Origin: a virus
Lineage: Duplodnaviria > Caudoviricetes
Direction: 5' to 3' (one strand)
IMG/VR virus record: IMGVR_UViG_3300010355_000898
Location: 32,001-96,000 of that record
Length of the DNA: 64,000 nucleotides
Shown here: piece by piece, positions 6,414 to 28,322 of the stretch
Position numbering within the stretch: the stretch's first letter is position 1
Layout of the letters: each line of letters begins with the position of its first letter
Position numbers and translations under genes: made by a program
The notes under the pieces: model-generated
The model's database searches: none
What the model saw: the letters and a program-made list of their open reading frames with translations, nothing else
Told to the model about the DNA's origin: nothing

Positions 6414-6440
6414 ATTGATGAGACAACTCAGAACAGTTTA

Positions 6441-7313
6441 ATGAACACAAGGGATAAGATTATGACATTCTCAGCAAAAATATTGTGTGACAGTGTAACA
6501 GAAAATGATGACAGATTGACAACGCTTGAAGTTACATTTCCAAGAATAGTGTTGTCAGAATTCAATACTCACAGGATGTTTTCAAGAAATTCTGCATCAA
6601 GCAGAGCAATTCCTGTTGAAAAAATGTTGAAATTGGTTAAAGAGAACACATACATTCCAAGTCATTGGGGTAAAAATCAGAAAGGAATGTCTGCCGAATT
6701 CACTGTTGAACAGAATGAACAGATGAAATCACGGGACGTTTGGCTCAAAGCCAGAGATAATGCAATCAGCAGCGCTGAAAATTTGTTGAAATTGGGCATT
6801 CATAAGCAGATAACAAACAGACTTCTTGAACCATTTATGTGGCATACAGTCATTGTCAGTGCAACAGATTGGTCAAATTTTTTTGCATTGAGATGTCATC
6901 CTGGAGCTCATCCTGACATCAGACAAATTGCTGAGATGATGAAATTTGTTATCAATGGTTCAGAACCAAAGCCAATGTATGAACATGATTGGCATATGCC
7001 ATTGATTGATCATGATGATATCAATATGACAATGAAAATGATTGATGAAGATGTCTATCAGTATGATAATGAACTGTTGAAGAAGATTTCAGTTGGTAGG
7101 TGTGCAAGGGTTTCATACCTTACACATGATGGAAAAAGAGATCACAATGCTGATATAAATTTGCATGATAAATTGTTGAGTGATGGACATATGTCACCAT
7201 TTGAACACATTGCAAGACCAATGTATAATGACGAATACAAGAAATCAAAGTATAGTGGAAATTTTAGGGGTTGGGTTCAGTACAGAAAAACATTGATAGG
7301 TGAGTGTAAATAG
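6441..7313 (+). CDS. thyX: Flavin-dependent thymidylate synthase
   Basis: EFNTHRMFSRNSASSRAIP, NRLLEP, NFFALR, ARVSY, GHMSPFEH. Confidence 0.92.
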   Translation: MNTRDKIMTFSAKILCDSVTENDDRLTTLEVTFPRIVLSEFNTHRMFSRNSASSRAIPVEKMLKLVKENTYIPSHWGKNQKGMSAEFTVEQNEQMKSRDVWLKARDNAISSAENLLKLGIHKQITNRLLEPFMWHTVIVSATDWSNFFALRCHPGAHPDIRQIAEMMKFVINGSEPKPMYEHDWHMPLIDHDDINMTMKMIDEDVYQYDNELLKKISVGRCARVSYLTHDGKRDHNADINLHDKLLSDGHMSPFEHIARPMYNDEYKKSKYSGNFRGWVQYRKTLIGECK

Positions 7314-7314
7314 T

Positions 7315-7923
7315 ATGAGTTTAGCAAAAGTTGTAATCATCGAAGGTCCAGATCGTTCTGGAAAACAGACACAAACAGAAAATTTGACATCACGATTGAG
7401 AGCACAAGGTCGTAAAGTCAAATTGATTGAAGTTCCAATCAAATCATCAATTTTTACTTACAAATTGATATATTGGATGTTGAACAATGGTATGGCAAAA
7501 AAGTTTCCAAACTTTTTTCAAACTGTTCAATTCATTAATCGTTTAATGTTTCAGATCACAAGGTTACCATTCATTCTGTTGTTTTATGATTATGTCATTT
7601 TTGATCGATGGTCATTGAGTTCAATTGTGTATGGTTCAGCAACTGGCGCAAATGTATGGATGTGCAAAATTTTTGCAAAATTGTTGATTGGTTATGACAG
7701 AATGATCATTCTGAATGGCAAAACATACAATGTTGGTAGAGAGACAGATGATTATGAAAATGATGATCTATTACAGATCGCTGTGAAACAGTTGTATTCA
7801 AAATGGGCATCAGAACACAACCTGTCAGGACAATATGCTGATCTGAATGTGTTGGAAATTGATAACAGATTACAAATAGATGAAATAACAGATATGATTA
7901 TGAGGCACATTAAGTATGGATAA
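7315..7923 (+). CDS. tmk: Thymidylate kinase
   Basis: IIEGPDRSGKQT P-loop; IFDRWSLSSIVYG. Confidence 0.85.
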   Translation: MSLAKVVIIEGPDRSGKQTQTENLTSRLRAQGRKVKLIEVPIKSSIFTYKLIYWMLNNGMAKKFPNFFQTVQFINRLMFQITRLPFILLFYDYVIFDRWSLSSIVYGSATGANVWMCKIFAKLLIGYDRMIILNGKTYNVGRETDDYENDDLLQIAVKQLYSKWASEHNLSGQYADLNVLEIDNRLQIDEITDMIMRHIKYG

Positions 7924-8545
7924 GTTTGGTGTCATAATTGCAGATCCGCCATGGTCATTTGATGATAAACTTCAGAGAATGAAAATTGCAACAAAGAGAT
8001 CTGCAAGATCACAATACAGAACAATGTCACTCAGTGAGATTGAACAATTGCCAGTGAAAGAACTCATTGATCCCAAAGGTTGTGTATTGGCACTTTGGGT
8101 ACCAAGTTCTCAAATTGAGGCAGGACTTCAGGTGATGAAATCTTGGGGCTTCAAAATGAAGCAAACATTCATTTGGATTAAATTGAAAAAGGGTTTCAAG
8201 ACAGAGAATGATATAAATTCAATAACGAGGGTTGGAATGGGAAGATTGTTTAGACAATCACATGAGATTGCTCTCATTGGAACAGCAGGAAAGTCTGCAA
8301 CAAAAAAGTTGAAAAATAGATCACAAAGATCTGTCTGCTTTGATCTGAATGTTGCACACAGTGTGAAACCAAACATACTTCATGATCGTTTAGATTTGAT
8401 GTTTCCAGATGATAATAAATTGGAACTTTTTGCAAGAAGAACAAGAAAAAATTGGATTACAATAGGCGATGGAATTGATGGGCTCAATATTGAACAGTCA
8501 ATTCAGAATTTGATTGATAATGATGGAGAAGAAAAAGATGTCTGA
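7916..8545 (+). CDS. MT-A70 family N6-adenine methyltransferase
   Basis: IADPPW, LALWV, WGF, HSVKP, LELFARR. Confidence 0.9.
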   Translation: MDKFGVIIADPPWSFDDKLQRMKIATKRSARSQYRTMSLSEIEQLPVKELIDPKGCVLALWVPSSQIEAGLQVMKSWGFKMKQTFIWIKLKKGFKTENDINSITRVGMGRLFRQSHEIALIGTAGKSATKKLKNRSQRSVCFDLNVAHSVKPNILHDRLDLMFPDDNKLELFARRTRKNWITIGDGIDGLNIEQSIQNLIDNDGEEKDV

Positions 8546-8768
8546 AGAATATACATGTGCAGATGAAGTTTGGTTTAGGATTGTTCAAATTGTTCAGGAG
8601 GCACTCCTGACTGGAACTGATTGTGCTGATCTGTTGAGACAGATCAGATTGTCAAAAGGTGATAATGATCAAATGATATTGTCAGCAACATATAAAGAAC
8701 AGGTTAAGAGAATGCATGAGAAGCTCTTGGAAAATGCAGAAGCAATCAAAAATGGAAACCAACAGTGA
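8538..8768 (+). CDS. Hypothetical protein
   Basis: Tiles between coupled neighbours. Confidence 0.6.
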   Translation: MSEEYTCADEVWFRIVQIVQEALLTGTDCADLLRQIRLSKGDNDQMILSATYKEQVKRMHEKLLENAEAIKNGNQQ

Positions 8769-9129
8769 TAAATTGAAAATGATGTGGTGTCAACAGGAAG
8801 CTTTTATGAGGCTTCTTCAGGAAAAACGTTCATTCACAGAATTTCCTGTTGACATAACTGCAAAAAGTGGACAAAAAATTGTCAAAGACATTACTCATGA
8901 ATGTATGCATGAACTTTTTGAAGCAAATCAGCACTTGAAGAATTCAAAAGATCACAGAGCAACTGATGTGAAAAATTTTGATCGTGATGCATACATTGAA
9001 GAATTGAGTGATGCGTTGCACTATTTCATAGAGATTGCAATTCTTACAGGAGTTTCAATGGATGAACTGTATGAAAAATATATGCAAAAGGGTTCAATCA
9101 ATGTTGAACGCATTAATAATGGATATTGA
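8752..9129 (+). CDS. All-alpha (MazG / dimeric dUTPase, T4 gp56 dCTPase-like) nucleotide pyrophosphatase
   Basis: ECMHELFEA and IEELSDALHY acidic motifs; K..IN.ER..NGY C-terminus. Confidence 0.8.
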   Translation: METNSDKLKMMWCQQEAFMRLLQEKRSFTEFPVDITAKSGQKIVKDITHECMHELFEANQHLKNSKDHRATDVKNFDRDAYIEELSDALHYFIEIAILTGVSMDELYEKYMQKGSINVERINNGY

Positions 9130-9224
9130 GCGTGAATAATTGTGCAAAAAAAGTGCAATTATGGCCTGTACAGATTTAGAACAGTGATTATCTTATCGAC
9201 ATCCCAAAAGGAAAGGAAATAGAA

Positions 9225-9662
9225 ATGCTATCCAAATACAATATTGATTCAATTATTGACAATGTTTTCAATTATGGTTTTGACAACCCACCAACAACGT
9301 GGCCTACAATAATTCCAAAGGTTTTACCATATCAACGACAAAATGATGAAGCTTTCAAAATTTTCCTTGAAAGATTGAACAGTATGAAAAAAGTGAATTC
9401 TGCGCAATATCAGATTACAGAAGATGCAATCATAATTGCGTTACCTGGTGTGAAGAAACAGGATATTGACATAACAGTCACTGGTGGTGAACTCTCAGTC
9501 AAGGCAAAGAAATCTGATGCAATTGTTTTTGATCATACATTCAAGATCAATGAAGGATCTTTTGATCCAAAATCTGCAAAAACAAAGTATGAAGATGGTG
9601 AATTGACAATTACATTCATGCCTCATGAATATATGAAGCCCACAAAGATTGACATTGAATAG
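9225..9662 (+). CDS. Small heat-shock protein (Hsp20)
   Basis: ALPGVKKQDIDI and AKTKYEDGELTI alpha-crystallin motifs. Confidence 0.88.
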   Translation: MLSKYNIDSIIDNVFNYGFDNPPTTWPTIIPKVLPYQRQNDEAFKIFLERLNSMKKVNSAQYQITEDAIIIALPGVKKQDIDITVTGGELSVKAKKSDAIVFDHTFKINEGSFDPKSAKTKYEDGELTITFMPHEYMKPTKIDIE

Positions 9663-9687
9663 TCAATTTGATTGAATGTTGATTATG

Positions 9688-9718
9688 AAATCACCCTCAA
9701 ATGAGGGTGATTTTTTTT
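9688..9718 (+). terminator. Rho-independent terminator
   Basis: Perfect inverted repeat AAATCACCCTCA / TGAGGGTGATTT followed by a T run, just after hsp20. Confidence 0.85.
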
Positions 9719-9747
9719 GTGAAAAGTTCCAAATTTGATATTATTGT
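9719..9747 (+). promoter_or_regulatory. Putative sigma70-like promoter, near-leaderless transcript
   Basis: GTGAAA-17nt-TATTGT, ATG 7 nt downstream; architecture recurs in the window. Confidence 0.55.
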
Positions 9748-9754
9748 CTGATGT

Positions 9755-10708
9755 ATGAATATGTTTATCAACACTGTACATGATGAAAAAGATTGTAAAC
9801 GTATAAAAAGACATAATGTTGATGTGATATTGAGAACCCTGGCAAAACATGATGGTTTTCTTTCAGGTGGAGGCGCAAGAATATTTGCGTTGGATGTCAT
9901 CAATAATGATGATAATGTCAATATTCACAACTATTTGTTTCATTCTGGGGGTGATCTAGATCTATTTTTTACTGATGAACACAGATCTTATATGATGTTG
10001 CGCGAAATTGAAAAATTGTTTGGAGACAGAATTTTTGTTGTTGAAACAACACCTTCTGGTGTTGCAACAGAATTGCACATTGATTGTAGTGATGGTAAAA
10101 ATGCAATCGCAAGATATCATGAACTGTTGAAAGGTGCAAAAAGAAGTGATCTCAATGGTTTACAAAGAGCAATATTGGATCGTCATGTTGGTAACTCTTA
10201 TGATGTTTTGAAGATTCAAATCATTCACAAGATAACTGGCGATGTTGAAAACGTTTTGAAAAATTTTGACATCACAAATTGTATGTATGCAATCAAACCT
10301 ACAATTGATCATGATGACAATATGTCTTTTCAGTTGACAAAACACAGTATGATTGATGAACTTGAAAAGACAAGAACACTTCATGTTCAAAAATTTGGTC
10401 TATACACAATAAACAGATTGGTCAAATGGCGATCTAGGCACCACTTCAAAAATTTTCATGATGAAAATTTTTCTGATTTGAAAATACAAATTATTGACTA
10501 TGCAAACAAGGTCAGAGAAAAGACAACGGGATACAATTTGAGCAAAGTTATTGATGTTCTCAACCATCTTGTTGCTCAAAACAGTTCAGAAATTAATTGT
10601 GATCTTGAAAAATTGCTTGAATTGAGTGCAATTTGGCCTTCTGATCTGCAGAGGTATGATTATGCATTCAAAACATTTTTGGATAAGGCACCATTGACAA
10701 CAGCATAG
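9755..10708 (+). CDS. Pol-beta superfamily nucleotidyltransferase (poly(A) polymerase/CCA head-like)
   Basis: FLSGGGAR, GDLDLFF, IQII, NFDITNC. Confidence 0.65.
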   Translation: MNMFINTVHDEKDCKRIKRHNVDVILRTLAKHDGFLSGGGARIFALDVINNDDNVNIHNYLFHSGGDLDLFFTDEHRSYMMLREIEKLFGDRIFVVETTPSGVATELHIDCSDGKNAIARYHELLKGAKRSDLNGLQRAILDRHVGNSYDVLKIQIIHKITGDVENVLKNFDITNCMYAIKPTIDHDDNMSFQLTKHSMIDELEKTRTLHVQKFGLYTINRLVKWRSRHHFKNFHDENFSDLKIQIIDYANKVREKTTGYNLSKVIDVLNHLVAQNSSEINCDLEKLLELSAIWPSDLQRYDYAFKTFLDKAPLTTA

Positions 10709-10763
10709 TGAACACCTTTTTACAGCAAAATTTGCTGACATCTTTCAATAGACATCAACAGGT

Positions 10764-10770
10764 ATATTTA
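10764..10770 (+). promoter_or_regulatory. Putative late promoter ATANTTA
   Basis: ATATTTA 13 nt upstream of ATG; recurring motif. Confidence 0.55.
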
Positions 10771-10783
10771 CTCATGTAGCAAT

Positions 10784-11827
10784 ATGAGCAGATTGAAAAT
10801 TGGCCAATTGGAAACTGTTGTTAAGCATACACTTGCTGAGAACAAATTTACACAATCAATTTTGAATGAAATTGATCAATATTTTGCAGGCAATGTTTGG
10901 ACAAAAGGTGGTCTTGAACGTGTGATTGTCGAAGCAAATGAACGACTTGATGTTCTTGAGAAGACAGGAAAACTTCCAAAACAGCGATTCAAAACTTCAT
11001 TGTTATTGAAATTGATGGAATCGAAGAGTGCAAATTGCAAAAAATTTGCAAGCAGACTTTTGCCAGAAAGTTTGTTGAAAAAATTTGTCAATGATAGAAC
11101 ACATGAAGTGAGAATTGTTTTGGCAAAACGTTTGCCACTCAAAGAAGCAAAAAATCTTCAAACTTTGTGGAATAATGATCAGGTTGAACACATTATCAAG
11201 GACAGAGAGCTGATCGCAGAGAGCGATGCATACAAACCTCTTGAGCTCTATTCTGGAAAACTTGGCGACATTGTCAAACAATCAGTTGATGCAGATTTGG
11301 GTGATGAATTCTATCATACACTTGCACTGAAAATGGTTTATGAATTTGATAGAGAAATAGAGCAGGGATGGGAAGAAAAGGTTGTCAAAAACTATTGTGC
11401 ACACATGAAGGTGACAACTGGCGTTGAAATTGATGCAGAAAAATTGCTTGATGAAATCTTTTCAATAATTGATGAGAAGGAAGAGCAATCTCTTGAAGAA
11501 CAGTTAATATTCAAACAGATTAACATTGTTGTTGAAAATTGTGATGTTGATCCGGCAAAAGAGTTGTTGACAATTGATGCAAACAGCAAATTTGCAAATC
11601 AATTCAACAAATTGTACAAAGCAAAAGGAAAACAGATTGGTGAAGGTATTTTGCCATCAAAATGTACACTTCCAACCAACACTTTGAGATATGTTGATGA
11701 ACAAAATCTTGATAGGTATGTTTCCATCTGGAATAGACGACAGCTGATTGAGAGTGCTGAACCTCTCAAAATGAATTGGACAGTTGGCAATGACGATCAG
11801 ATCCAATTCACTGTGAGGATACTATAA
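10784..11827 (+). CDS. Hypothetical, possibly virion-associated protein
   Basis: 347-aa ORF after ATANTTA motif; L-x-E motifs. Confidence 0.6.
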   Translation: MSRLKIGQLETVVKHTLAENKFTQSILNEIDQYFAGNVWTKGGLERVIVEANERLDVLEKTGKLPKQRFKTSLLLKLMESKSANCKKFASRLLPESLLKKFVNDRTHEVRIVLAKRLPLKEAKNLQTLWNNDQVEHIIKDRELIAESDAYKPLELYSGKLGDIVKQSVDADLGDEFYHTLALKMVYEFDREIEQGWEEKVVKNYCAHMKVTTGVEIDAEKLLDEIFSIIDEKEEQSLEEQLIFKQINIVVENCDVDPAKELLTIDANSKFANQFNKLYKAKGKQIGEGILPSKCTLPTNTLRYVDEQNLDRYVSIWNRRQLIESAEPLKMNWTVGNDDQIQFTVRIL

Positions 11828-15160: not shown

Positions 15161-16984
15161 GTGACAAATCATATTGATGAAAGGAACAGCACTCTGGTGC
15201 CAAAGAAGTTTTTTGGACTTCATAGTCACACAGGAGCTTCAACCTATGATGGTATGGGTCCTGCAGAAGATCATTTCAAATTTGCATTGAGCAATGGACT
15301 TGATGGGATGGCAATCACTGAACATGGTCATATGAACAGTTTTGCACAAGCATATCTCTTCAATCAGAAGTGGAAAAAAGCAGGAACACAGTTCAAATAC
15401 ATTCCAGGAGTTGAGGCATACTATCACCCAAGTCTTGAACAGTGGGCTCAAGACAGGGCTCTGTATGAGGAAGCAAAAGAGGATAAAAAGCTTCAGAAGA
15501 AACTGAAAAAACGTGAAGAAGGTCTCAAGAACATCAGTGTGAAGACAGATGATGACGACGACATTGTTGATATTGAAATGTCAAATGCATTGACAATTGA
15601 GAATGAGGATGAAACGCGAAATATAAAGGCCTTCAATCCTCTCAATCGTCGCCATCATCTTGTTGTGCTCCCAAAGACATCAGGTGCCCTCAAGAAAATA
15701 TTTCACATTGTTTCCAGGGGTTATATAGAAGGGTTCTACAGATTTCCCAGAATTGATTTGGGGATGATCCTGAAGGAGGCAAAGGATGACATCATTCTGT
15801 CATCTGCATGTCTTGGGGGTCCAATATCATATGCTGTGTTGCAAACATTGAGAACTGTCAATTTTGATGATCTCAATCCTGAAATTCTTGATGACGAAAA
15901 CATCATGCGCAGAGTTCTGAATGAGATTGGGAACATAGCTGATCCACTCATCAGTGCAGTTGGTGTGAAAAATTTTCTTCTTGAATTGCAATTTCACAAA
16001 ATTCCTGCTCAGGATGTTGTCAACAGAGCAATCATTGAATTTGCAAAAAGGAATGGAATGACTGAACAGTTGATTGCAACGTGTGACAGTCATTATCCAA
16101 GACCTGATCTGTGGCGTCATAGAGAGATGTACAAAAAACTTGGGTTCATGAATTATAGTGAATTGGGACCTGAAAGCTTGCCAAAGTCTGTTGAGGATGT
16201 GAAAGCACTCCTGTATCCAAAGAATGCAGAGCAGATGTGGGAAGGTTTCAAACAACGCCAAGATCAGCACAAGTTTTACAGAGAAGATGGTGTTGAACAG
16301 TTGGTGTGTGATGCAATTGAGAGGACACATGATATTGCTCACAATGTAATTGAAGATATCAAATTTGATCAGGGATACAAATATCCAAAATCGGTTGTAC
16401 CCAGTGATACAACGGAATTCAAATATTTGTGCAAACTTGTAAAGGATGGAATGATCAAAAAAGGTTTGGATAAAAAGCCTGAATATGTTGAGAGGATGAA
16501 GTATGAGTTGAGCATCATCAAGAAGCTTGACAACGCTTCATACTTTGTCACATTGGCAGGAGCACTCAGATTGGCAAGGGATGTATGTCTTCTTGGGGTC
16601 GCAAGAGGTTCATCTGGCGGTTCATTGGTTGTTTATCTATTGGAAATCACAGACATTGACCCTTTAAAGTATAATCTTTCATTCGAGAGGTTCCTGAATC
16701 CTCATAGATGTTTACCAGGTGAAACATTAGTTCGAACACCAATTGGCAATAAATCAATTTCAGAACTTAATATTGGGGATGAAATTATTGGTGGAAGTGG
16801 AGAAACAAGAAAAATTCTTGACAAATTTGAAACAAAAACATTGCAGTATGTTAAGTTCATTGTGAATGGACAAACTATTGTTTGTTCTAGAAAACATCGT
16901 TGGCCAATTATTCGTAATGGAAAATTTGAATTAGTTGAGGCTGAACACTTATGTAAAGATGATCAGATAATAGCTAATGATTAG
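15161..16984 (+). CDS. dnaE: DNA polymerase III alpha (DnaE) part 1: PHP domain, start of palm, split-intein N-half
   Basis: GLHSHT..S.YDG, AITEHG, PGVEAY, SACLGG, CDSHY, ARGSSGGSL, FERFLNPHR then CLPGET. Confidence 0.95.
   Translation: MTNHIDERNSTLVPKKFFGLHSHTGASTYDGMGPAEDHFKFALSNGLDGMAITEHGHMNSFAQAYLFNQKWKKAGTQFKYIPGVEAYYHPSLEQWAQDRALYEEAKEDKKLQKKLKKREEGLKNISVKTDDDDDIVDIEMSNALTIENEDETRNIKAFNPLNRRHHLVVLPKTSGALKKIFHIVSRGYIEGFYRFPRIDLGMILKEAKDDIILSSACLGGPISYAVLQTLRTVNFDDLNPEILDDENIMRRVLNEIGNIADPLISAVGVKNFLLELQFHKIPAQDVVNRAIIEFAKRNGMTEQLIATCDSHYPRPDLWRHREMYKKLGFMNYSELGPESLPKSVEDVKALLYPKNAEQMWEGFKQRQDQHKFYREDGVEQLVCDAIERTHDIAHNVIEDIKFDQGYKYPKSVVPSDTTEFKYLCKLVKDGMIKKGLDKKPEYVERMKYELSIIKKLDNASYFVTLAGALRLARDVCLLGVARGSSGGSLVVYLLEITDIDPLKYNLSFERFLNPHRCLPGETLVRTPIGNKSISELNIGDEIIGGSGETRKILDKFETKTLQYVKFIVNGQTIVCSRKHRWPIIRNGKFELVEAEHLCKDDQIIAND
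16709..16984 (+). mobile_element. Split intein 1, N-fragment (91 aa)
   Basis: CLPGETLV block A; CSRKH block B; ends EAEHLCKDDQII. Confidence 0.9.
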
Positions 16985-17906
16985 AAAATGTGTAAATTGT
17001 AATTGTGATTTTATCATTGATGATACAAACAAAAATTACTCAATTCAAAAACGACGTTTTTGTGGTTCAAAATGTAAAAATGCATGGAATAGGCGTCCTG
17101 AAAATGGTGAAAAGATTGTTAAACAATGTATCATTTGTGGAAAAGAGGTGCGAGTTTACAAATCACAATCAGCTAGAAAGGTTTGTTCAAAAGAATGTAA
17201 AAATATCAATCAATCACAACGATTGTCAAGTGATAAAAAAAGCTTAAAATGTGAACATTGCGGGAAAAATTTTGATGTAAACATTTCTTGTAATAGAAAA
17301 TATTGTTCTCCGCAATGTTCATCTCTTTCTAAGAGAACATCATTGGAAAAACAATGTGAAATTTGTAATAAGACATTTCAAATCAAAAAGTCAGCTTATG
17401 AACGAAAGCGTTTTTGTTCTAGAAATTGTCAAATGATAGCACAATCAAATGGAAAAATTCATATTCATGTCAATGGAAGAAGTGGATACAGAATTGATAT
17501 AAAGGGTAATCATTATTTCAAATCTGCGTTTGAAGCTGATTATGCAAGATATTTGCAATATTCAAATATTGCTTATGAATATGAACCAAAAACATTTGAG
17601 ATATTGGTTGATAATCAAATAAGACATTATACGCCTGATTTTTGGAATAATGAGTTGAATTGTTATATTGAATTGAAAGGCGTAAGAAAATCTGAGTCAA
17701 ATAATTTTTCATTATTGATCAACTCAAATTCTGATGTTAGACAACGTGTAATTGATGAACAACATGTTAACATTAAAGTTATTTATATGAATGATTTTTA
17801 TTCTTTTCTTAAAGAAAAGAATTTGTATAGTGTTATACCAAATATTGAAAATAGAAATTATGGAGCAACAAAATATCTTGTCAAACAACATAATTACAAG
17901 CGTTGA
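16977..17906 (+). CDS. Free-standing homing endonuclease: CxxC/CSxxC zinc repeats + PD-(D/E)XK domain
   Basis: Four CxxC...C(S/G)xxC repeats; FKSAFEA, YEYEPKTF, YTPDF, YIELKG; lies between intein halves. Confidence 0.85.
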   Translation: MIRKCVNCNCDFIIDDTNKNYSIQKRRFCGSKCKNAWNRRPENGEKIVKQCIICGKEVRVYKSQSARKVCSKECKNINQSQRLSSDKKSLKCEHCGKNFDVNISCNRKYCSPQCSSLSKRTSLEKQCEICNKTFQIKKSAYERKRFCSRNCQMIAQSNGKIHIHVNGRSGYRIDIKGNHYFKSAFEADYARYLQYSNIAYEYEPKTFEILVDNQIRHYTPDFWNNELNCYIELKGVRKSESNNFSLLINSNSDVRQRVIDEQHVNIKVIYMNDFYSFLKEKNLYSVIPNIENRNYGATKYLVKQHNYKR

Positions 17907-18012
17907 ATTGTGTGAATATGATGAAGAACAAATTTTGTATGATATTACTGTTGACGTCGATCATACATTTTTTTGTAAACAAGGAAATTCTGATTGGTAT
18001 TTGACACATAAT
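17860..18012 (+). mobile_element. Split intein 1, C-fragment (about 51 aa)
   Basis: LYDITVDVDHTFF block F; THN|S block G. Confidence 0.9.
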
Positions 18013-18714
18013 TCAGGTGCACCAGACATAGATTGCGACATCAGTGATCGTGATAAAGTTCTTGAAGTATTGAGAGAAAAGTTTGGAATGAACAATGTTA
18101 TTCCAATTTCAAATATCAACACGTTCAAAGTGAAAACGCTCCTGAAAGATATTTCAAAGTTTTATGGAATTCCATTTGAAGAAGCAAATGAGGCAACAAA
18201 AACTGTTGAAAAGGAGGTCAGAAAGGCAACCATGAAACATGGTGATGATAAAAACCTTTTTGTTCTCAAATTTGAGGATGCAATGAAGTATTCAGAAAGT
18301 TTCAGAAGTTTTATTGAGAGGCATCCTGAGGTTGCAGAGAGTATGGAAATTCTCTTTAAAGAGCAGAGATCATTGGGTCGGCATGCTGGAGGTGTTGTCA
18401 TTATGGATGATGCAATGGGAGAAATGCCTCTCATTACAAATGGTGGTGAACCTCAAACGCCTTGGGTCGAAGGTGTTGGTGGAAAAACGCTTGAACCAAA
18501 TGGAATCATTAAATATGACCTGTTAGGTCTTGAAACAATGAGACTAATTGAAAATACAGTTGAAAAGGTCATAAAGGGTAAAGGAGGCATCAAACAGATT
18601 GAACTTGAGGATGGTACAGTGATGAGATTGCTACCAGATCAATTGGTTATGACACAAAGAGGTGAAGTGTTTGCTAATGAATTGAAGGATGATGATGAAA
18701 TCTTGACGCCATGA
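17860..18714 (+). CDS. dnaE: DnaE part 2: intein C-half, catalytic palm/thumb, degenerate intein-like tail
   Basis: YLTHN|SGAPDIDCD, GRHAGGVV, KYDLLGL; ATG at 17860 inside the endonuclease 3' end. Confidence 0.93.
   Translation: MEQQNILSNNIITSVELCEYDEEQILYDITVDVDHTFFCKQGNSDWYLTHNSGAPDIDCDISDRDKVLEVLREKFGMNNVIPISNINTFKVKTLLKDISKFYGIPFEEANEATKTVEKEVRKATMKHGDDKNLFVLKFEDAMKYSESFRSFIERHPEVAESMEILFKEQRSLGRHAGGVVIMDDAMGEMPLITNGGEPQTPWVEGVGGKTLEPNGIIKYDLLGLETMRLIENTVEKVIKGKGGIKQIELEDGTVMRLLPDQLVMTQRGEVFANELKDDDEILTP
18589..18714 (+). other. Degenerate, non-catalytic intein N-fragment-like tail on DnaE part 2
   Basis: IKQIELEDGTVMRLLPDQLVMTQRGEVFANELKDDDEIL aligns with the distal half of IntN2; lacks Cys1 and the block-B His. 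Confidence 0.75.
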
Positions 18715-18965
18715 TGATAACAATAAAAATGATTGTGTATCGTAAAGGTACGTTAAAGTTTCAATACAATCAACGTTTTGAGAATGGCCATCATGATTTT
18801 TTATTGAAAGAAATCTATGAAGATGTTGTTGATCATGTTTGGCATATGGACGTATATGATACACGTACGTTGACAGGAATGAAACATACACAATTCATCA
18901 TCAATGATTACAGAACAGTGTTGAATAGGTTGAAGCGCGATGTTAACAATACAAAAAATTGTTGA
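18711..18965 (+). CDS. Small hypothetical protein
   Basis: ATGA-coupled to dnaE part 2; MIVYRKG motif. Confidence 0.55.
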   Translation: MMITIKMIVYRKGTLKFQYNQRFENGHHDFLLKEIYEDVVDHVWHMDVYDTRTLTGMKHTQFIINDYRTVLNRLKRDVNNTKNC

Positions 18966-19176
18966 GAATGAACTTGAAAAGAAGGGTTACATATCTCACA
19001 ACAGGTCAGTAACAAAGCAGATGTCATATTATGATATGAATGCGTCAGTTGAACAGAATGGATTGAAATTCATTTCAAGATTGAGTTGTGAACCATACAA
19101 TGTTTGTGTGCTCTTTTACAGGTTTGATCAGTATCAATTCAGTTCAATACTGAATATTGTTCACAATCTTCCATGA
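18940..19176 (+). CDS. Small hypothetical protein
   Basis: Overlapping tiled ORF. Confidence 0.5.
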   Translation: MLTIQKIVENELEKKGYISHNRSVTKQMSYYDMNASVEQNGLKFISRLSCEPYNVCVLFYRFDQYQFSSILNIVHNLP

Positions 19177-19180
19177 ATGA

Positions 19181-20323
19181 TCATTTCTTCCCTGCATGTT
19201 TTTTCAACACTTTGCTGAATGATTGTTTTGGAATATTGGCAAGTTTATCAACAATTTTTTGCTTTTTATCCTGTTCCCATGGATAAATCCCAGAGTTCTC
19301 TGGGTCTGCATCAAACCACATGATTTCACCAACCTTGATATCACTGAGTGATATCACTTCACGCTCATTTGAATATTCATCACTGATGTTTTTGTACCAC
19401 AATCTTGCATCAAGGAAAACATCATCACTGTTCTCATCAGTGTAGGCAACCATTACAATGGGAACCGTTCCACTTTTCATATTACTGTTTTCATTGGCAA
19501 AACGTTTTGCTGTTCTCAGACTCTTAGTCCAACTTCCTGCATTCTTTTTTGGGTGCCATGTGAAACGTTTTTCAATGTGTCCATCCTTGATTGCAACCTC
19601 ACCCTTCTTGGCACCAATAGCAGCCTTCAACCATTCATATTTGACGCCCATTCCCCTGTAAACTTTTTGAACATTTGGTCGTGTGAACACATCATCATAC
19701 AGTCCCTGTTTCAGGATGTTCCTGATTGCAGTGACATACTGAATTTGCATACCAGCATGATCAAGATGACTGCTGATTGCAGTGTGCAGCCGTTGCTCAA
19801 ATTTGTTATCCAATTCTGGCAGATTTCTTTCACTGCCAAAAGCAATCAGATCAAGACGACCCCCACTGTTCTTGCTGCTCTTTTTCAAGAATTTTTGTTT
19901 CTGTTTTTCAGCCTTTATGAATTCATCATGAAACACAGTGTTATACAATTCATGAGCCAAACCTTTTGGATCTTTTCCAGATAGCATATCAAACAATTTT
20001 GTGAACACAGGTTTGAGCACAGTGATCTGTTTTTGATCGAGTCGACCACTAAGATTGAACTCTTTGTATGCTTCTGCCTGTTCATCAGACAAATTTAGCA
20101 ATTGTTTGTAAAAATTGTATCTCTTTTTAGATCTGTCAATTGTTGACAATCCTTTACCACTACTGACGTTGTTGTAAATGATTATTATTGTTTTGATTTC
20201 ATTATCAAATTCCCTGAATTTATCAGCGTATTCTTCGTTCAAAATTTCAGTCAAATACAAAAAATCAGTCATATATTCTTTGAAAAGTTTACCAATCTCT
20301 TTGTCACTTTTGAAATATTGCAT
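19181..20323 (-). CDS. Putative ADP-ribosyltransferase (R-S-E clade) domain protein
   Basis: KVYRGM, GSWTKSLRTAKRFA, YSNEREVI; only long credible minus-strand gene; ATACTTA upstream. Confidence 0.7.
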   Translation of the reverse strand: MQYFKSDKEIGKLFKEYMTDFLYLTEILNEEYADKFREFDNEIKTIIIIYNNVSSGKGLSTIDRSKKRYNFYKQLLNLSDEQAEAYKEFNLSGRLDQKQITVLKPVFTKLFDMLSGKDPKGLAHELYNTVFHDEFIKAEKQKQKFLKKSSKNSGGRLDLIAFGSERNLPELDNKFEQRLHTAISSHLDHAGMQIQYVTAIRNILKQGLYDDVFTRPNVQKVYRGMGVKYEWLKAAIGAKKGEVAIKDGHIEKRFTWHPKKNAGSWTKSLRTAKRFANENSNMKSGTVPIVMVAYTDENSDDVFLDARLWYKNISDEYSNEREVISLSDIKVGEIMWFDADPENSGIYPWEQDKKQKIVDKLANIPKQSFSKVLKKHAGKK

Positions 20324-20338
20324 ACTAAAACTTAATTG

Positions 20339-20345
20339 TAAGTAT
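20339..20345 (-). promoter_or_regulatory. Putative late promoter ATANTTA
   Basis: ATACTTA on the minus strand, 15 nt upstream of the ART-like ATG. Confidence 0.55.
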
Positions 20346-20347
20346 AT

Positions 20348-20602
20348 GTGAATACTGTCACAGTTGGGTTTTATAATCAGAGCATGAACTCATTGAGACC
20401 AACAGATATATCAGGTTTGATCAGGTACACAATTGAACAGTTGTCAGAGATATCTGCACAGAATGGTGAGCTGAAATTGTCAACAGATGATTTAGAGAAG
20501 AGATTGCGATCTGCAATTGCAGTGTTGAAGGTTGTGGATGAAAAGATTGAACTTGTGAGAATGATGTTGGTAAAACTTCCAGATGATTGTGAACAGGAAT
20601 GA
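20348..20602 (+). CDS. Small coiled-coil hypothetical protein
   Basis: ORF divergent from the ART-like gene. Confidence 0.5.
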   Translation: MNTVTVGFYNQSMNSLRPTDISGLIRYTIEQLSEISAQNGELKLSTDDLEKRLRSAIAVLKVVDEKIELVRMMLVKLPDDCEQE

Positions 20603-20741
20603 ATTATGTTAACGTTGAGAATATACAGAGACAACATTGGATCCATATCAGGAAATGATCTCACACAGTGTGAAGAGCACACAGTCAAGATGATATCAAA
20701 AAAGCGCCCAAGAATTATGAAAATCATTATTGGTTTATTGA

Positions 20742-21002
20742 ATGAACACAGTTGAAATTTTGTTGTCATCCAAAATTGACACACTCAAAGTGTACAAAAC
20801 TGGACTTTGGGCATTTATGTATTCAGGAAATTGTGTTCTGCTGTGGAATCCACGAATTGTTAACAGAACAATTTCTGATCATGATGGCTTTTTGGTTAAC
20901 GATCTGAGCACTGATGTCATGACATTGTGGGATTGGGAAACTATGACAAGATTGTGCAGTCTGAACACTGATGAATTCAGGGAAAGATTTGGCTTATTGT
21001 GA
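20742..21002 (+). CDS. Small hypothetical protein
   Basis: LKVYKTG motif; tiled. Confidence 0.5.
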   Translation: MNTVEILLSSKIDTLKVYKTGLWAFMYSGNCVLLWNPRIVNRTISDHDGFLVNDLSTDVMTLWDWETMTRLCSLNTDEFRERFGLL

Positions 21003-21244
21003 ATCTCAAATTGAAGGTGCACAGAGCTGGTTATGGCAGTTTTGTTTGGGGAGATCATAAAGTTGTATTTTTTCCGGAAATTCCGAAAATGTATGACGAC
21101 AGTAGAATTCTGATGTCATATTCAAGAATTCACATTCTAAATCATTGGTTATTCAAATATAATCATCAATTTTTTGTTGAAATGAGTGAGTGCAAAAACG
21201 TTGAACAATTGATGAAAGTTTTCAATGATTGGAAATTCAAATAA
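20999..21244 (+). CDS. Small hypothetical protein
   Basis: LKVHRAG motif; GTGA overlap. Confidence 0.5.
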   Translation: MNLKLKVHRAGYGSFVWGDHKVVFFPEIPKMYDDSRILMSYSRIHILNHWLFKYNHQFFVEMSECKNVEQLMKVFNDWKFK

Positions 21245-21530
21245 ATTCAATAGTGAACAGTTGATGGAAATGTGGAATTCTGTTATTCGAACAACAGACT
21301 ATGTTGACAAAAAATGGATTGGTTTAAGAGTTTATTGTGATGGTGGTTGGCTTGTGTTTGTGTATGTCAGTGACAGATTGGGTGATGACATATGGGCACC
21401 CAATTTTTATACCAAACCAGAAAAGATGACAAGATTTCCAGATTTGGAAACACTCAACTATGATGATTTCAAAAGGGTGATATTGGATGAAAATAAGAAA
21501 TATTACAACAGAACAACCAGAATTTCTTGA
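21225..21530 (+). CDS. Small hypothetical protein
   Basis: LRVYCDG motif; overlaps the start of dnaE part 3. Confidence 0.5.
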   Translation: MIGNSNKFNSEQLMEMWNSVIRTTDYVDKKWIGLRVYCDGGWLVFVYVSDRLGDDIWAPNFYTKPEKMTRFPDLETLNYDDFKRVILDENKKYYNRTTRIS

Positions 21531-22119
21531 TATCAAGAAGTGGTATGAACAGAATCTTCATCCTGATGCAAACAATTATGATGATCAGAAAACATTTGAT
21601 GTCTACAAAGGTGAAGCATTCCCTGGGATATTTCAGTTGACATCAAAGGGTGCGCAGAGACTGTTCAGACAAGCAGAGCCAAAGTCAATTGTTGACATTG
21701 CTGTGTTGACAGCAATCTATAGACCTGGACCCTTGGCTGCAAATGTTGACAAGATCTATCTCAAGGCAAAGAAGGGTGAAAAGTTTGAATGGGGGCATCC
21801 ACTCTTTGAAAAAGTGTTGGGAGAAACATATAATTGTCTCACAGGTGATACACTAATTCTATTGGCAAATTTGCAACAAAAAAGTTTAAGTGATATAGAA
21901 ATTGGTGATGAGATCATATCATTCAATGAAAAAACTCAACACTATGAGCAAGACATTGTTAAGGCAAAAGTTTGTAATGGAACTCAAGATCTCATTATGA
22001 TAGAAACTGAAACAGGGACATTAAAATGCACACCAGAACATAAAATTATGACAAAGAGAGGTTGGGTATGTGCTGGTGATTTAATGGAAGATGATGAGAT
22101 TGTGAGTTATGAAATTTAG
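21487..22119 (+). CDS. dnaE: DnaE part 3: IntC-like stub, fingers segment, split-intein N-half
   Basis: DDQKTF, GIFQLTS, AIYRPGPL, LGETYN|CLTGDT. Confidence 0.93.
   Translation: MKIRNITTEQPEFLDIKKWYEQNLHPDANNYDDQKTFDVYKGEAFPGIFQLTSKGAQRLFRQAEPKSIVDIAVLTAIYRPGPLAANVDKIYLKAKKGEKFEWGHPLFEKVLGETYNCLTGDTLILLANLQQKSLSDIEIGDEIISFNEKTQHYEQDIVKAKVCNGTQDLIMIETETGTLKCTPEHKIMTKRGWVCAGDLMEDDEIVSYEI
21835..22119 (+). mobile_element. Split intein 2, N-fragment (94 aa)
   Basis: CLTGDTLI block A; CTPEHKIMTKRGW block B. Confidence 0.92.
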
Positions 22120-23089
22120 TAAACGATGTGTACATTGTAATATAGAATATCTTTCAAAAAAAATTGATTCAAAATATTGTTCAAGAGCTTGTAAAGATGC
22201 GCATTCTAGAACATTAAAAAAGGGTGTATGTGTTATTTGCGGTTGTGAAACAAGATGTGAACGTGTAAAAACTTGTTCAAAATATTGTAAGTCTCTTTAT
22301 CTTAAAAGCAAAAAAGAAACAATTGAATGGAAAGAAGCGCGAACTGAAATAATATGTCAAATGTGCAATAAGACATTTATTGTTTCAAATAGTAGAAAAT
22401 CACGTAAATGTTGTTCGAAAAAATGTGCTTATGAATTAAGATCAATTTTGTACAAAGGAAGAACAATAACGCCTGAATGGAAAGCAAATCAAAATTTAGG
22501 TAAAAAACGTGAAAATATTGTGAAATTTGGTGATTTTGAATGTGAAAAATGTCACAAAAAATTTGAAACAAATCTTTCTTTAAGGTCTCATAAATCATAT
22601 TGTAGTGCTGATCAAGAACAACGAAATGTTACGTGTGAAATTTGTGGTAAAGTTTTCAAAAGAAATCGAAATTTTCTTGCACATTATCAATTACATGACG
22701 AAGAAAAATATAGGCAGCATTGTTTATCAGTTAAAGAAGGTGTAAAATATCGTTCTGCACCTCAAACAACATCAAATCAAGAATTGCAATTCTATAAAAT
22801 ATTGTGTGATTTTTATGGTCAAGATAACGTTGTACACAAGTTCAAACTACAAGAAAGTGGTCATGAATATGACTTTTATGTCAAAAGTCTAAATCTAATC
22901 ATTGAATTTGATGGTGATTATTGGCATGGAAACAAAGAATGTTTTGAATTAACAGATAAAATGAAACAACAATTCAATATTGATATATCACATACAAAAC
23001 GAGCCATAAAAGAAGGTTACGATTTACAAAGAGTATGGGCATCAAAAATGGACATATATCCAAATGAATTAAGAGTTTTACCAATATGA
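22109..23089 (+). CDS. Free-standing homing endonuclease: zinc repeats, C2H2-type fingers, Vsr/DUF559-like domain
   Basis: CxxC...CSxxC repeats; CEICGKVFKRNRNFLAHYQLH; YDFY, IIEFDGDYWHG. Confidence 0.85.
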   Translation: MKFSKRCVHCNIEYLSKKIDSKYCSRACKDAHSRTLKKGVCVICGCETRCERVKTCSKYCKSLYLKSKKETIEWKEARTEIICQMCNKTFIVSNSRKSRKCCSKKCAYELRSILYKGRTITPEWKANQNLGKKRENIVKFGDFECEKCHKKFETNLSLRSHKSYCSADQEQRNVTCEICGKVFKRNRNFLAHYQLHDEEKYRQHCLSVKEGVKYRSAPQTTSNQELQFYKILCDFYGQDNVVHKFKLQESGHEYDFYVKSLNLIIEFDGDYWHGNKECFELTDKMKQQFNIDISHTKRAIKEGYDLQRVWASKMDIYPNELRVLPI

Positions 23090-23193
23090 TTTACACTAAA
23101 GTGAAATCTATAAAACACATCAATAAAGATGTGACATATGATATTCAAACTGGGAATCATAATTTCATTGCAAATGGAATTCTCGCACATAAT
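23086..23193 (+). mobile_element. Split intein 2, C-fragment (36 aa)
   Basis: MIYTKVKSI...TYDIQTGNHNFIANGILAHN|C. Confidence 0.93.
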
Positions 23194-24396
23194 TGTTTAA
23201 TTTTCCAAGAGTCAGTCATGGAATTGGCCGAAATCATTGGGCTTTTCCCCAAAGACCAATGTGATAACGTTCGTAGAGCAATTATGAAACGTGATCTTTC
23301 AAAGGGTGAGGCTGCCATAGCAGAAGCAAAGAAAATGGAAGATCAATTTGTTGATGGTGCTGTCAGTCAGGGTATCAAAGAAGAGACAGCACGACAAGCA
23401 TATCAGAATATATTGTTCTATTCTTCATACGGGTTCAACAAAAGCCATGCAATCGCTTATGCAATTGATTCATATATGTGTGCATGGCTACTGACACACT
23501 ATGAAAAGGAATGGTTGACAACCTATCTTGAGAGCATGTCAAACAATCCTGATGATAAAGCAACAGCAATTGGTGAAATCAGAAAACTTGGTTACAAGAT
23601 TGTTCCAATTGATGTGCAATATGCAGGAAAAGGTTGGACATGCATTGAAGGAAAAAAATTCATGCCATCACTCCTATCATGTAAGGGAGTTGGTGAGAGT
23701 GCAGTTGAAGAATTGTTGTCAATGCGTCCAATCACTGATTTCAAAGATATGTTTTGGAATGCTGATGGAAGTTGGCGACCATCAAAATTCAACTCAAAAG
23801 CACTTGATGCACTCATTAAGTTGGGAGCATTCGGTTCATTGGATGTTGTTGGCTCAGGAAAGCTGTTCAGATCATACAAACATATGCATGATGTTATGAT
23901 TGTGCACAAGGATGAAATCAAAAAGGTTTCAAAACGTGATCAGTATCAGGGTTACAACAATTTTTTGCGACTCATTGATGAGTATGCACAAAAGTATGAT
24001 GCAGAAGAGTTGCCGGGTGAATGGACAAAACGTGAATTGGCAGATTTTCAAGCAGAAATTCTTGGGACAGTTGATGTAAGAATGATCATTGATGATGAAA
24101 TCTGGGGTACACTTGAAACAAAAGGCATCAAATCTGTTGATGAACTTGAGCAGGGTGAGAAGGAGGTCGTTTGGTTTGTTGTCAATGGTTCAAATCTGAA
24201 AAGGACAAAGACTGGAAAAGAATTCCTGAGTGCTGAAGTCATGGGTTCAAAATCAAAAATTGAACGCATGAACATTTGGGGTTGGAAGAGTGATAAGAAC
24301 GTGATCAAGAATTTGACATTGTGCATAGCAGAGGTTGAAAAGAATGATTTTGGTGCATCAACAACAAGTTGGAAATTGAAAACATTGGGTGAATAA
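23086..24396 (+). CDS. dnaE: DnaE part 4: intein C-half, fingers/HhH/OB C-terminal region
   Basis: ILAHN|CLIFQES, SYGFNKSHAIAY, KGVGES, LIKLGAF. Confidence 0.94.
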   Translation: MIYTKVKSIKHINKDVTYDIQTGNHNFIANGILAHNCLIFQESVMELAEIIGLFPKDQCDNVRRAIMKRDLSKGEAAIAEAKKMEDQFVDGAVSQGIKEETARQAYQNILFYSSYGFNKSHAIAYAIDSYMCAWLLTHYEKEWLTTYLESMSNNPDDKATAIGEIRKLGYKIVPIDVQYAGKGWTCIEGKKFMPSLLSCKGVGESAVEELLSMRPITDFKDMFWNADGSWRPSKFNSKALDALIKLGAFGSLDVVGSGKLFRSYKHMHDVMIVHKDEIKKVSKRDQYQGYNNFLRLIDEYAQKYDAEELPGEWTKRELADFQAEILGTVDVRMIIDDEIWGTLETKGIKSVDELEQGEKEVVWFVVNGSNLKRTKTGKEFLSAEVMGSKSKIERMNIWGWKSDKNVIKNLTLCIAEVEKNDFGASTTSWKLKTLGE

Positions 24397-26719: not shown

Positions 26720-26938
26720 ATGGCACACACATGCAGATGCAACAAAGAGTTGCTTTCAGGTGAATCATTTTGTAAAGATTGTGTTGAAAAGTTGACAAAT
26801 GAATGGTGGAATAGTGCAATTGAATGCCTAATTCATGACATCATGAGTCACAATCACAACCTTTCAGATGATGAAAAATCAAAATTTGTGAAACTTTGCA
26901 AAGGCGTAATGCTTCCAGAGGTGAATGATGACATATGA
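26720..26938 (+). CDS. Small Cys-rich hypothetical protein
   Basis: CRC...CKDC. Confidence 0.5.
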   Translation: MAHTCRCNKELLSGESFCKDCVEKLTNEWWNSAIECLIHDIMSHNHNLSDDEKSKFVKLCKGVMLPEVNDDI

Positions 26939-27122
26939 ATATATTTGCAAAAATTGTGGCCTTCAATTTGAGGCAGAACAGAAGATAACAGAAGAGCCCT
27001 TGATTCACTGTGAGAAATGTGGACACAATTCATTGAAGAGATTAATCAATCAGCAATCAGGATTTATTCTGAAGGGTTCTGGATGGTACAGAGATGGTTA
27101 TGGAAATGTTGGTAAAGGTTAA
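26928..27122 (+). CDS. FmdB-family zinc-ribbon protein
   Basis: YEYICKNCG...CEKCG..LKRLI...FILKGSGWYRDGY. Confidence 0.88.
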   Translation: MTYEYICKNCGLQFEAEQKITEEPLIHCEKCGHNSLKRLINQQSGFILKGSGWYRDGYGNVGKG

Positions 27123-27345
27123 CATATCAAAGCAACAAGCATGGGATACTGAAAATTTTATTCCATTGAATAGTGATTTTGAATTGCATAATTTGATACA
27201 TAGGGATGAAAATGTAATCATAACAAAGTTTGATGATGATTACTATATCTGGTCATTTAGCGGAAGTCAACAATGCACAAATTCATTTGATAAACGTGTC
27301 AAATTTATTGATGAAAGTTCATTAGAAAAGATATACGCAATATGA
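27100..27345 (+). CDS. Small hypothetical protein
   Basis: Tiled; ATGA overlap with the next gene. Confidence 0.5.
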   Translation: MEMLVKVNISKQQAWDTENFIPLNSDFELHNLIHRDENVIITKFDDDYYIWSFSGSQQCTNSFDKRVKFIDESSLEKIYAI

Positions 27346-28322
27346 AAAATATTCTGATAACTGGAGTGGCTGGTTTTATTGGTAGCAATCTTGCAAATGA
27401 ATGTATAAAGATTGGTCTCAACGTTGATGGCGTTGATGATTTTTCAAATGGTCATAAAGAATTTGTGCCAACAGGAATGGGAACATTGTATGCAAATGAT
27501 TTCTCTGACAAAAACATTGTTGACAATGTTGAGCATGGTGTTTATGACACAATTTTTCACCTTGCAGCAATGCCAAGAGTTTCATACAGCGTTGAGTATC
27601 CATATGAAACAAATGATGTGAATGTAACAAAAACATTGAAACTTTTTGAAGCATTGAGAAAAGCTGGTAACAGAACAAAACTGATATTTGCATCAAGTTC
27701 ATCAGTTTATGGTGGAGCGACAGTTGATCAATATGGAAAAGTTCTTGGACAATCAGAAACTGATACAAAACACCCAGTTTCACCATATGCATTGCAAAAG
27801 TCAATAATTGAAGATTATGCTGTGATGTATGCAAACTATTACAAATGCAACATTGCATCAATGAGATTTTTCAATGTTTTTGGCAAAAATCAGTTGGGTG
27901 GATCTCCATATTCAACTGCAATTTCAGCATGGTTGACTGCAATAAAGTTTGGAAAAAAATTGAGATTTGATGGAGATGGTACACAGAGCAGAGATATGTG
28001 TCATGTTGACAATGTTGTTCATGCGCTCATTCTTGCTGGGAAATCTGCCAACATATTCAATGGTGATGTATACAACGTTGCAACTGGGACAAGAATAAGC
28101 AATAATGAAATTTTGTGGCTCATCAATCAGAGATTGCCAAACAAGGGTATGATCATGGCGCCAACAAGGATGGGTGATGTGAAACATACACTTGCAAACA
28201 TATCAAAAATCAAAAATGATCTGAAGTATGAGCCAATTGTTGATGTAAAAACTGGAATTGATATGACAATTGATTGGTACACAACAAATTGGGAACAGAT
28301 CAAAATGTTGTCTTCGATTTGA
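27342..28322 (+). CDS. NAD-dependent nucleotide-sugar epimerase/dehydratase
   Basis: ITGVAGFIGS, HLAA, ASSSSVYG, SPYALQK, RFFNVFG, GDGTQSRD. Confidence 0.92.
   Translation: MKNILITGVAGFIGSNLANECIKIGLNVDGVDDFSNGHKEFVPTGMGTLYANDFSDKNIVDNVEHGVYDTIFHLAAMPRVSYSVEYPYETNDVNVTKTLKLFEALRKAGNRTKLIFASSSSVYGGATVDQYGKVLGQSETDTKHPVSPYALQKSIIEDYAVMYANYYKCNIASMRFFNVFGKNQLGGSPYSTAISAWLTAIKFGKKLRFDGDGTQSRDMCHVDNVVHALILAGKSANIFNGDVYNVATGTRISNNEILWLINQRLPNKGMIMAPTRMGDVKHTLANISKIKNDLKYEPIVDVKTGIDMTIDWYTTNWEQIKMLSSI

Follow-up and report, generated by a model that had tools for sequence, protein, structure and literature searches.

The stretch of DNA considered here (the window) comprises 64,000 nucleotides, bases 32001-96000, of a 269.5-kb virus record of the Caudoviricetes (IMG/VR record IMGVR_UViG_3300010355_000898) that is rated 74% complete and encodes a T4-like portal and terminase. 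Between positions 15161 and 24396 of the window, four co-linear open reading frames (ORFs) on the + strand, ORF1, ORF3, ORF7 and ORF9, together make up a complete Pol III alpha (DnaE) of ~1200 amino acids (aa), divided by three breaks (Table 1). This gene in four pieces appears to be the only DnaE-type polymerase of the phage and is predicted from its sequence to be functional. Both a second intact replicative polymerase and decay of the DnaE pieces were looked for: besides these pieces the record, incomplete as it is, contains no second match to PF07733 and no family-B polymerase, and the ratio of non-synonymous to synonymous substitution rates (dN/dS) of the exteins is 0.03-0.06.

Table 1. 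Features of the dnaE locus, in window coordinates
Feature	Position	Strand	Length	Description
ORF1	15161-16984	+		PHP domain; PF07733 (DNA_pol3_alpha) positions 2-98
Extein E1	15161..16708	+	516 aa	PHP and start of the polymerase core; ends ...FERFLNPHR; aligns to Taq 2HPI up to 458
N-half of split intein 1 (IN1)	16709..16984	+	91 aa + stop	CLPGETLV..., Cys1; block B S-R-K-H
HEG1	16977..17906	+	309 aa	Four CxxC...CxxC modules and C-terminal PD...ExK-type nuclease domain; overlaps both neighbouring ORFs
ORF3	17860-18714 (frame open from 17791)	+		PF07733 positions 100-260
C-half of split intein 1 (IC1)	17860..18012	+	51 aa from ATG 17860 (frame open from 17791)	Ends ...DHTFF...LTHN, then Ser+1
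Extein E2	18013..18585	+	191 aa	Palm with PDIDCD and KYDLLGL; aligns to Taq 461-642
Tail	18586..18714	+	42 aa + stop	GIKQIELEDGTVMRLLPDQLVMTQRGEVFANELKDDDEILTP; relic of an N-intein's second half, non-splicing
Spacer	18711..21486		2.8 kb	Six small + strand ORFs and a 380-aa - strand ORF (19181-20323)
ORF7	21487-22119	+		DNA_pol3_finger positions 12-115
Leader	21487..21516	+	10 aa	MKIRNITTEQ; not present in contiguous DnaE; similar to a C-intein's first strand (alignments)
Extein E3	21517..21834	+	106 aa	Start of the fingers; ends ...LGETYN
N-half of split intein 2 (IN2)	21835..22119	+	94 aa + stop	CLTGDTLI..., Cys1; block B T-P-E-H; Pfam Intein_splicing
HEG2	22109..23089	+	326 aa	CxxC modules, C2H2 zinc fingers, C-terminal domain with ...IEFDGDYWHG...; overlaps both neighbours
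ORF9	23086-24396	+		Finger positions 113-164 and HHH_6
C-half of split intein 2 (IC2)	23086..23193	+	36 aa	Ends ...HNFIANGILAHN, then Cys+1; Pfam Intein_splicing 119-155
Extein E4	23194..24396	+	400 aa + stop	Remaining fingers, HhH and C-terminal region

The four pieces account for the whole polymerase. In Pfam, PF02811, PF07733, PF17657 and PF14579 each score above the cut-off in at least one piece. PHROG 405 is covered at 31-439, 442-642, 614-716 and 714-1044, and the exteins tile the contiguous 1202-aa relative P0037 at 4-510, 512-710, 699-812 and 813-1201 with 57-76% identity. The coordinates, the Pfam and PHROG matches and the tiling all agree with the preliminary description, which had read DnaE motifs in co-linear order across four ORFs. 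Its statement that the metal ligands of the PHP domain and the catalytic motifs are intact is borne out by alignment to Taq Pol III alpha (2HPI): the PHP motifs (HxH..D, DHG, E, H, C, DxH), PDIDxD and K-x-D-x-LGL are all present. The set of parts that marks a C-family Pol III alpha (PHP, a palm with three catalytic Asp, fingers and HhH) is complete. Break 1 falls directly after Taq residue 458, three to four residues ahead of the catalytic aspartates (PDIDCD), and break 3 sits at ETYN/C in the fingers. Compared with the unbroken sister phage L027, dN/dS is 0.038 for E1, 0.061 for E3 and 0.029 for E4, and E2 differs by two synonymous and zero non-synonymous changes.

At breaks 1 and 3 an endonuclease ORF lies between two intein halves, the arrangement that characterizes fractured genes, and Cys1, block B (S/T)xxH, block F, the terminal HN and Ser or Cys at +1 are all kept. 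To judge from these motifs, both breaks are canonical fractured-gene cassettes, in which a free-standing endonuclease gene separates an N-intein from a C-intein. Among solved structures, intein 1 is most similar to gp41-1, a naturally split intein (6RIZ, E 2.2e-7). Intein 2 comes nearest to two chains, the mini-intein Spl DnaX (7CFV, 1.5e-7) and the split intein NrdJ-1 (8UBS, 4.5e-7). Block B is aligned for both inteins. The start of IC1 at 17860 corresponds to the gene call in the identical contig L033. HEG1 matches PHROG 1271, 9019 and 945 and weakly resembles T7 endonuclease I (Pfam Phage_endo_I E 2.7e-5, below the cut-off; PDB E 0.036). HEG2 matches zf-C2H2 and PHROG 559 and 1271; its C-terminal domain gives a weak DUF559 match in Pfam (E 0.056) and no PDB homologue by sequence search. 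Similarity between the two endonucleases is confined to the zinc-module region (23% identity). Between the two inteins, the N-halves are 31% and the C-halves 33% identical, and the charge polarity is opposite (0 for IN1 and -9 for IC1, -10 for IN2 and +2 for IC2), which fits a lack of cross-reaction; judged by sequence, the two pairs are probably orthogonal.

The history of these cassettes can be read from sister phages in which both sites are empty. The 90%-identity cluster of ORF1 contains members of 595-607 aa ending in the N-intein and members of 742-749 aa in which E1 and E2 are continuous. The continuous form is found in L027, L028 and L029, which share 96-99% DNA identity with the window in both flanks; in L034 the genes are arranged in the same way. 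These four contigs have two dnaE genes only, one of 742-749 aa (692 aa in the L034 gene call) and one of 516 aa; 749 aa corresponds to E1 plus E2 with its tail (516+233), and 516 aa to the leader-bearing E3 plus E4 (116+400). Two blocks of the window of about 1.3 kb each, 16702-18015 and 21838-23190, are absent from L027, L028 and L029, and the intein-free target sites in L027 lie around ...AATCCATATCGCGTAGGGTGCCCAGAT... and ...ACATACAATTGTTTAATT.... At site 2 the cassette stands exactly between AAT and TGT, and the native Cys becomes the +1 residue. At site 1 a stretch of about 24 bp surrounding the insertion has been recoded, so that NPYRVGCPD becomes NPHR/SGAPD, with Ser replacing Val as Ser+1; other intein alleles at this site (in L007, L015 and P0028) have Ser or Thr at +1. 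Since sisters of 96-99% identity lack both cassettes and encode the predicted spliced products directly, both cassettes are recent and precise insertions. The junctions FERFLNPHR/SGAPDIDCD and LGETYN/CLIFQES are as first described: the extein flanks abut without loss in contiguous relatives and exactly in L027. The sister genes of 749 and 516 aa likewise support the earlier proposal of two trans-splicing reactions, one joining the first two pieces and one the last two, together with one non-covalent association, and the middle break would normally be bridged without a peptide bond because the sister phages encode two separate DnaE genes.

That the four-piece layout is an artefact of assembly or a chimera is highly improbable. 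The 269,342-bp ENA contig L033 has the same layout but is 100% identical to the window over 11 kb, and the two may derive from the same reads. L035, however, comes from a different run (SRR22988830) and is a distinct genotype of 95-98% identity that carries the same four pieces and both endonuclease genes; because this second genotype from another sample has the same layout, the layout is not explained by misassembly. Further members of the protein clusters lie on other JGI and Logan contigs, the layout is seen on several contigs of up to 269 kb, and the insertions are in frame to the codon. The cassettes of L035 are 98-100% identical to those of the window and thus more conserved than E4 (95.2%), and its extein differences, given as synonymous to non-synonymous, number 6:0 in E2, 7:0 in E3 and 41:10 in E4.

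Unlike breaks 1 and 3, the middle break (break 2) lacks intein halves with splicing residues. Across this position contiguous relatives read ...KYDLLGLETMRLIERTIELILQRREGIxKPTFDDV..., and split forms add a tail of 42-56 aa upstream and a leader of 10-14 aa (consensus MKIKSI...) downstream, both absent from unsplit homologues. Compared with N-inteins in hhalign, 18 tails match columns 52-100 of 113 of the N-intein (P 96.4%, E 1.3e-9). In tblastn, residues 45-91 of IN2 match window positions 18565-18708 with 42% identity (E 3.9e-6). When a profile of the tails is compared with the whole PDB, the best match is the split intein NrdJ-1 (8UBS, residues 73-110, E 5.6e-6), followed by a DnaE intein. 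These three independent comparisons agree in showing that the tail and the second half of an N-intein are homologous. Cys1 is absent from the tail, its block B T-x-x-H is replaced by P-D-Q (His to Gln), and blocks A, F and G are missing; with all of these gone, it is predicted to be incapable of splicing by any known mechanism. No endonuclease gene is present in the spacer of the window, whereas in L023 and L025 the tail is immediately followed by a gene for a 534-569-aa zinc-finger protein with a match to PHROG 3339, "homing endonuclease" (E 1e-60 to 1e-71). Since the tail is an intein remnant and L023 and L025 carry a homing endonuclease there, the middle break is best read as a fractured-gene-type cassette with shortened, non-splicing intein ends, from which the endonuclease gene has gone in the lineage of the window.

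The spacer is syntenic in L027-L029, L034 and L035, and its ORFs have no match to a Pfam, PHROG or PADLOC family. Where the window has the 380-aa ORF, at which the GC skew falls locally (19181-20323, - strand), L027, L028, L034 and L035 have two tandem ORFs of 321 and 379 aa that are partly alike (67% nucleotide identity over ~270 bp), and the window is short of ~970 bp relative to these sisters. Three consecutive small ORFs of 86, 81 and 101 aa at 20742-21530 look like paralogues by eye, with strand motifs rich in W and F; no family was found for them, and the last overlaps the start of ORF7. Free-standing paralogues of PHROG 3339 occur elsewhere in the phage's own genome, at 8376-9983 (- strand), 10759-11402 and 249981-252037. 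An intron, a frameshift and a bypass at the middle break were considered and rejected: Rfam gives no intron or RNA element there, the spacer holds a gene on the opposite strand, and the sisters have two separate genes.

The state of the middle break varies among relatives. The tail is found in at least 17 protein clusters (90% identity) and the leader in at least 14 downstream fragments. In a maximum-likelihood tree built from 52 E1E2 cores, split forms are distributed patchily, and the well-supported branches force at least seven changes; the tree comes from a quick search with support from the SH-like approximate likelihood-ratio test (SH-aLRT) only, and the result is provisional. For instance, the split P0033 and the contiguous P0040 are 85% identical. 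This patchiness suggests, provisionally, repeated gain or loss of the middle break and hence its mobility. The tails are 24-35% identical where the palm cores are 61-78% identical, and so evolve much faster, and they are more alike than shuffled controls (0.32 versus 0.21 +/- 0.06). In P0034 (1172 aa, on a Logan contig of 44.7 kb) the tail, a linker of ~20 aa and the leader are fused in frame and the middle break is closed; this protein may represent a natural intermediate of re-fusion. Further on in P0034, an N-intein at IFQ/C runs in frame into an endonuclease-like domain.

Breaks and inteins at other positions are also frequent. L023 and L025 each have dnaE in at least four pieces, L004, L007, L015 and L022 carry other inteins, and homologous cassettes occupy the same sites, with intact exteins, in the distant relatives L007, L023, L025 and P0002-P0013. 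In this phage group dnaE commonly has more than one break, and the four-piece state is not unique to the window, as L023 and L025 are equally fragmented. P0028 (NCBI-sourced, 1032 aa) carries two inteins, a contiguous mini-intein at site 1 and another inside the catalytic motif (PDID/intein/CD), and its C-terminus also bears the non-splicing tail. In L015 (12693-13222) the halves of a site-1 split intein are encoded by two neighbouring, overlapping ORFs without an intervening endonuclease gene, and another intein is present further upstream in E1.

Tail and leader may also have a role in assembly. The net charge of the tails ranges from 0 to -8 (17 of 18 are negative, and that of the window is -6), and the leaders are mostly basic; this acidic/basic polarity is that of the electrostatic "capture" step in split-intein assembly (review PMC11766414). 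One tentative proposal is that the middle break is a mobile cassette (an endonuclease gene, a half N-intein tail and a C-intein-strand leader) that spreads among phage dnaE genes and that the polymerase survives through docking of acidic tail and basic leader; we hold this to be possible but rather doubtful. Complex prediction from tail and leader alignments (A2 and A3) scores 0.27 against a mark of 0.32 and counts neither way for binding. A model of E2 with its tail has a low overall predicted local distance difference test (pLDDT) score of 59.9, with the tail as five short strands at pLDDT 63-83, and is suggestive only as regards the tail fold; an AlphaFold2 model of residues 640-800 of P0034 from a single sequence (pLDDT 36.6) is unusable.

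Taken as a whole, the locus probably encodes a functional DnaE in four pieces that is built by two split-intein trans-splicing reactions and one non-covalent association. The background state would have been two genes as in the sister phages, one encoding E1E2 with the tail and the other the leader with E3E4, with tail and leader as the shrunken, non-splicing ends of a split-intein/homing-endonuclease cassette. Two more cassettes would then have been inserted precisely, one just before PDIDCD and the other at ETYN/C. After translation, split intein 1 (gp41-1-like, with an acidic C-half) would join ORF1 to ORF3, and split intein 2 (NrdJ-1/DnaX-like, with an acidic N-half and a basic C-half) would join ORF7 to ORF9. 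The spliced products would be polypeptides of 749 and 516 aa, the same as those encoded directly by the sister phages, and these two chains would assemble without a peptide bond. The tail and leader may dock the two halves, for which the tails of NrdA around mobE in phage Aeh1 offer an experimental precedent by analogy. To the preliminary description this account adds the recent and precise nature of the two cassettes, the reading of the middle break as a non-splicing intein cassette and the frequency of several breaks in one gene.

The split inteins might instead serve for docking only, with no splicing, in which case the enzyme would be a non-covalent complex of four subunits. The middle break indicates that a non-covalent junction is tolerated, and dead-intein tails occur in the same gene, but both inteins keep every catalytic residue, the site-1 insertion brought its own Ser+1 in place of Val, a change that only splicing needs, and break 1 lies only about four residues from the catalytic aspartates. 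We consider docking without splicing quite unlikely.

A polymerase crippled by its recent cassettes is another explanation to be weighed against a functional four-piece enzyme. The genotype would then be defective or transient and would rely on another polymerase, either its PolA-like protein or one from a helper phage or from the host, while the selfish cassettes merely persisted. At 26919-28151 of the phage's own genome (L030:4919-6148), just upstream of the window, a 410-aa protein contains a partial family-A polymerase domain (PF00476 positions 110-354 only, PHROG 17) and no exonuclease domain. The presence of this ORF in an incomplete record speaks for a crippled polymerase, as do cassettes that are very recent, near-identical between genotypes and absent from the sister phages. 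Conversely, every splicing residue and polymerase motif is intact, the layout is found in two genotypes and on several contigs of up to 269 kb, homologous cassettes stand at the same sites with intact exteins in the distant relatives listed above, and the PolA-like protein has no more than a partial polymerase domain. On balance a crippled polymerase seems unlikely.

Several points nevertheless weigh against a working four-piece polymerase. Splicing, assembly and polymerase activity, as well as any docking role of tail and leader, are inferred from sequence. Given the PolA-like protein and the incompleteness of the record, the phage need not depend on DnaE, and neither a beta clamp nor an epsilon exonuclease (RNase_T) was found in the record. 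The low dN/dS values show a conserved gene but do not prove selection after fracturing, because the exteins may have diverged for the most part before the cassettes were inserted. Ribosome-binding sites are weak ahead of several of the DnaE pieces; scans for promoters and terminators at the locus gave no signal above shuffled controls and are uninformative.

The layout of the locus is known from other systems. Fractured genes were defined by Dassa et al. (2009; PMC2677866), who described three metagenomic DnaE loci, each with one split intein and an endonuclease gene, at different sites; one of the three held part of an additional intein. The same study reported an intein-less SbcD-like gene that is split by an endonuclease gene and has short inserted ends at the break. 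The locus described here shares with these genes the adjacent, co-oriented halves with split-intein ends, the free-standing endonuclease between them, a phage-like replication host gene (DnaE among them) and charge-complementary halves. It differs in having three breaks in one gene, a whole-genome context, empty-site sisters at 96-99% identity and a dead half-intein junction beside two live-looking ones. Whereas the endonucleases of Dassa et al. are GIY-YIG or Vsr-like, HEG1 and HEG2 are zinc-finger proteins whose nuclease domains are not placeable in either family: as regards a Vsr-like/EDxHD core (I-Bth0305I family), HEG2 gives only its weak DUF559 match and HEG1 its weak likeness to T7 endonuclease I. 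The locus extends the layout of Dassa et al., which is a known one, and is not unique.

The middle break resembles nrdA of Aeromonas phage Aeh1, which is split by mobE and in which the tails are essential for activity (Crona et al., 2011; PMC3045599). In both cases a free-standing homing endonuclease gene interrupts an essential gene, no splicing takes place, and the pieces bear insert-derived C- and N-terminal tails that unsplit homologues lack. The Aeh1 tails are not intein-derived, whereas the tail described here is homologous to half an N-intein. As in the cyanobacterial Ssp and Npu DnaE, Pol III alpha would be joined from two genes by protein trans-splicing, which here is predicted; the cyanobacterial gene has a single break at another site (the sites here are before PDIDxD and at TYN/C), halves at distant loci and no endonuclease gene. 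Of the natural split inteins with solved structures, gp41-1 (6RIZ/6QAZ) is nearest to intein 1 and NrdJ-1 (8UBS) to intein 2, and Dassa et al. (2009; PMC2677866) report the same charge polarities for split inteins of these two types, although the similarity is remote (phmmer E ~1e-7 over 65-90 residues) and the host protein different. Among the papers searched, none deals with a natural non-splicing intein remnant used for assembly and none with a multi-fractured dnaE in jumbo phages.

The neighbours of the DnaE locus, which belongs to a replication module, include a DnaB-like helicase, RecA and a ribonucleotide reductase (RNR) that carries an intein. Among GenBank phages, megablast found no close relatives, and protein identity to the nearest isolates is about 32% at most. 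The large subunit of RNR (1055 aa, window 3246-6413) contains an in-frame intein (Pfam Intein_splicing E 2e-13) with the junction ...TNP/CLTADTMV. The RNR gene call in L027 is 846 aa long and has no Intein_splicing match, so that the RNR intein may be polymorphic among the sister phages too. In the large terminase there is an intein that contains a LAGLIDADG domain, and the T4-like portal protein likewise has an intein, its N-part being 30% identical to IN2 (236999-239812 and 240199-242679 of the phage's own genome cover terminase and portal; L032:1999-4809 and 5199-7676). In total the genome holds at least five intein insertions and the dead half-intein.

The window and its sister phages form a natural before-and-after pair, in which the same polymerase gene occurs with and without cassettes in genomes that are otherwise 96-99% identical. 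This pair fixes the insertion boundaries to the codon and shows the recoding of the extein at a homing site. Two natural split inteins that must avoid cross-reaction within one protein are candidates for multi-fragment protein ligation. A dead half-intein junction next to two apparently live ones makes the question of whether splicing decays into docking directly testable. If the middle break is indeed held together by tail and leader, protein splicing and its non-covalent descendant would be found side by side in one enzyme.

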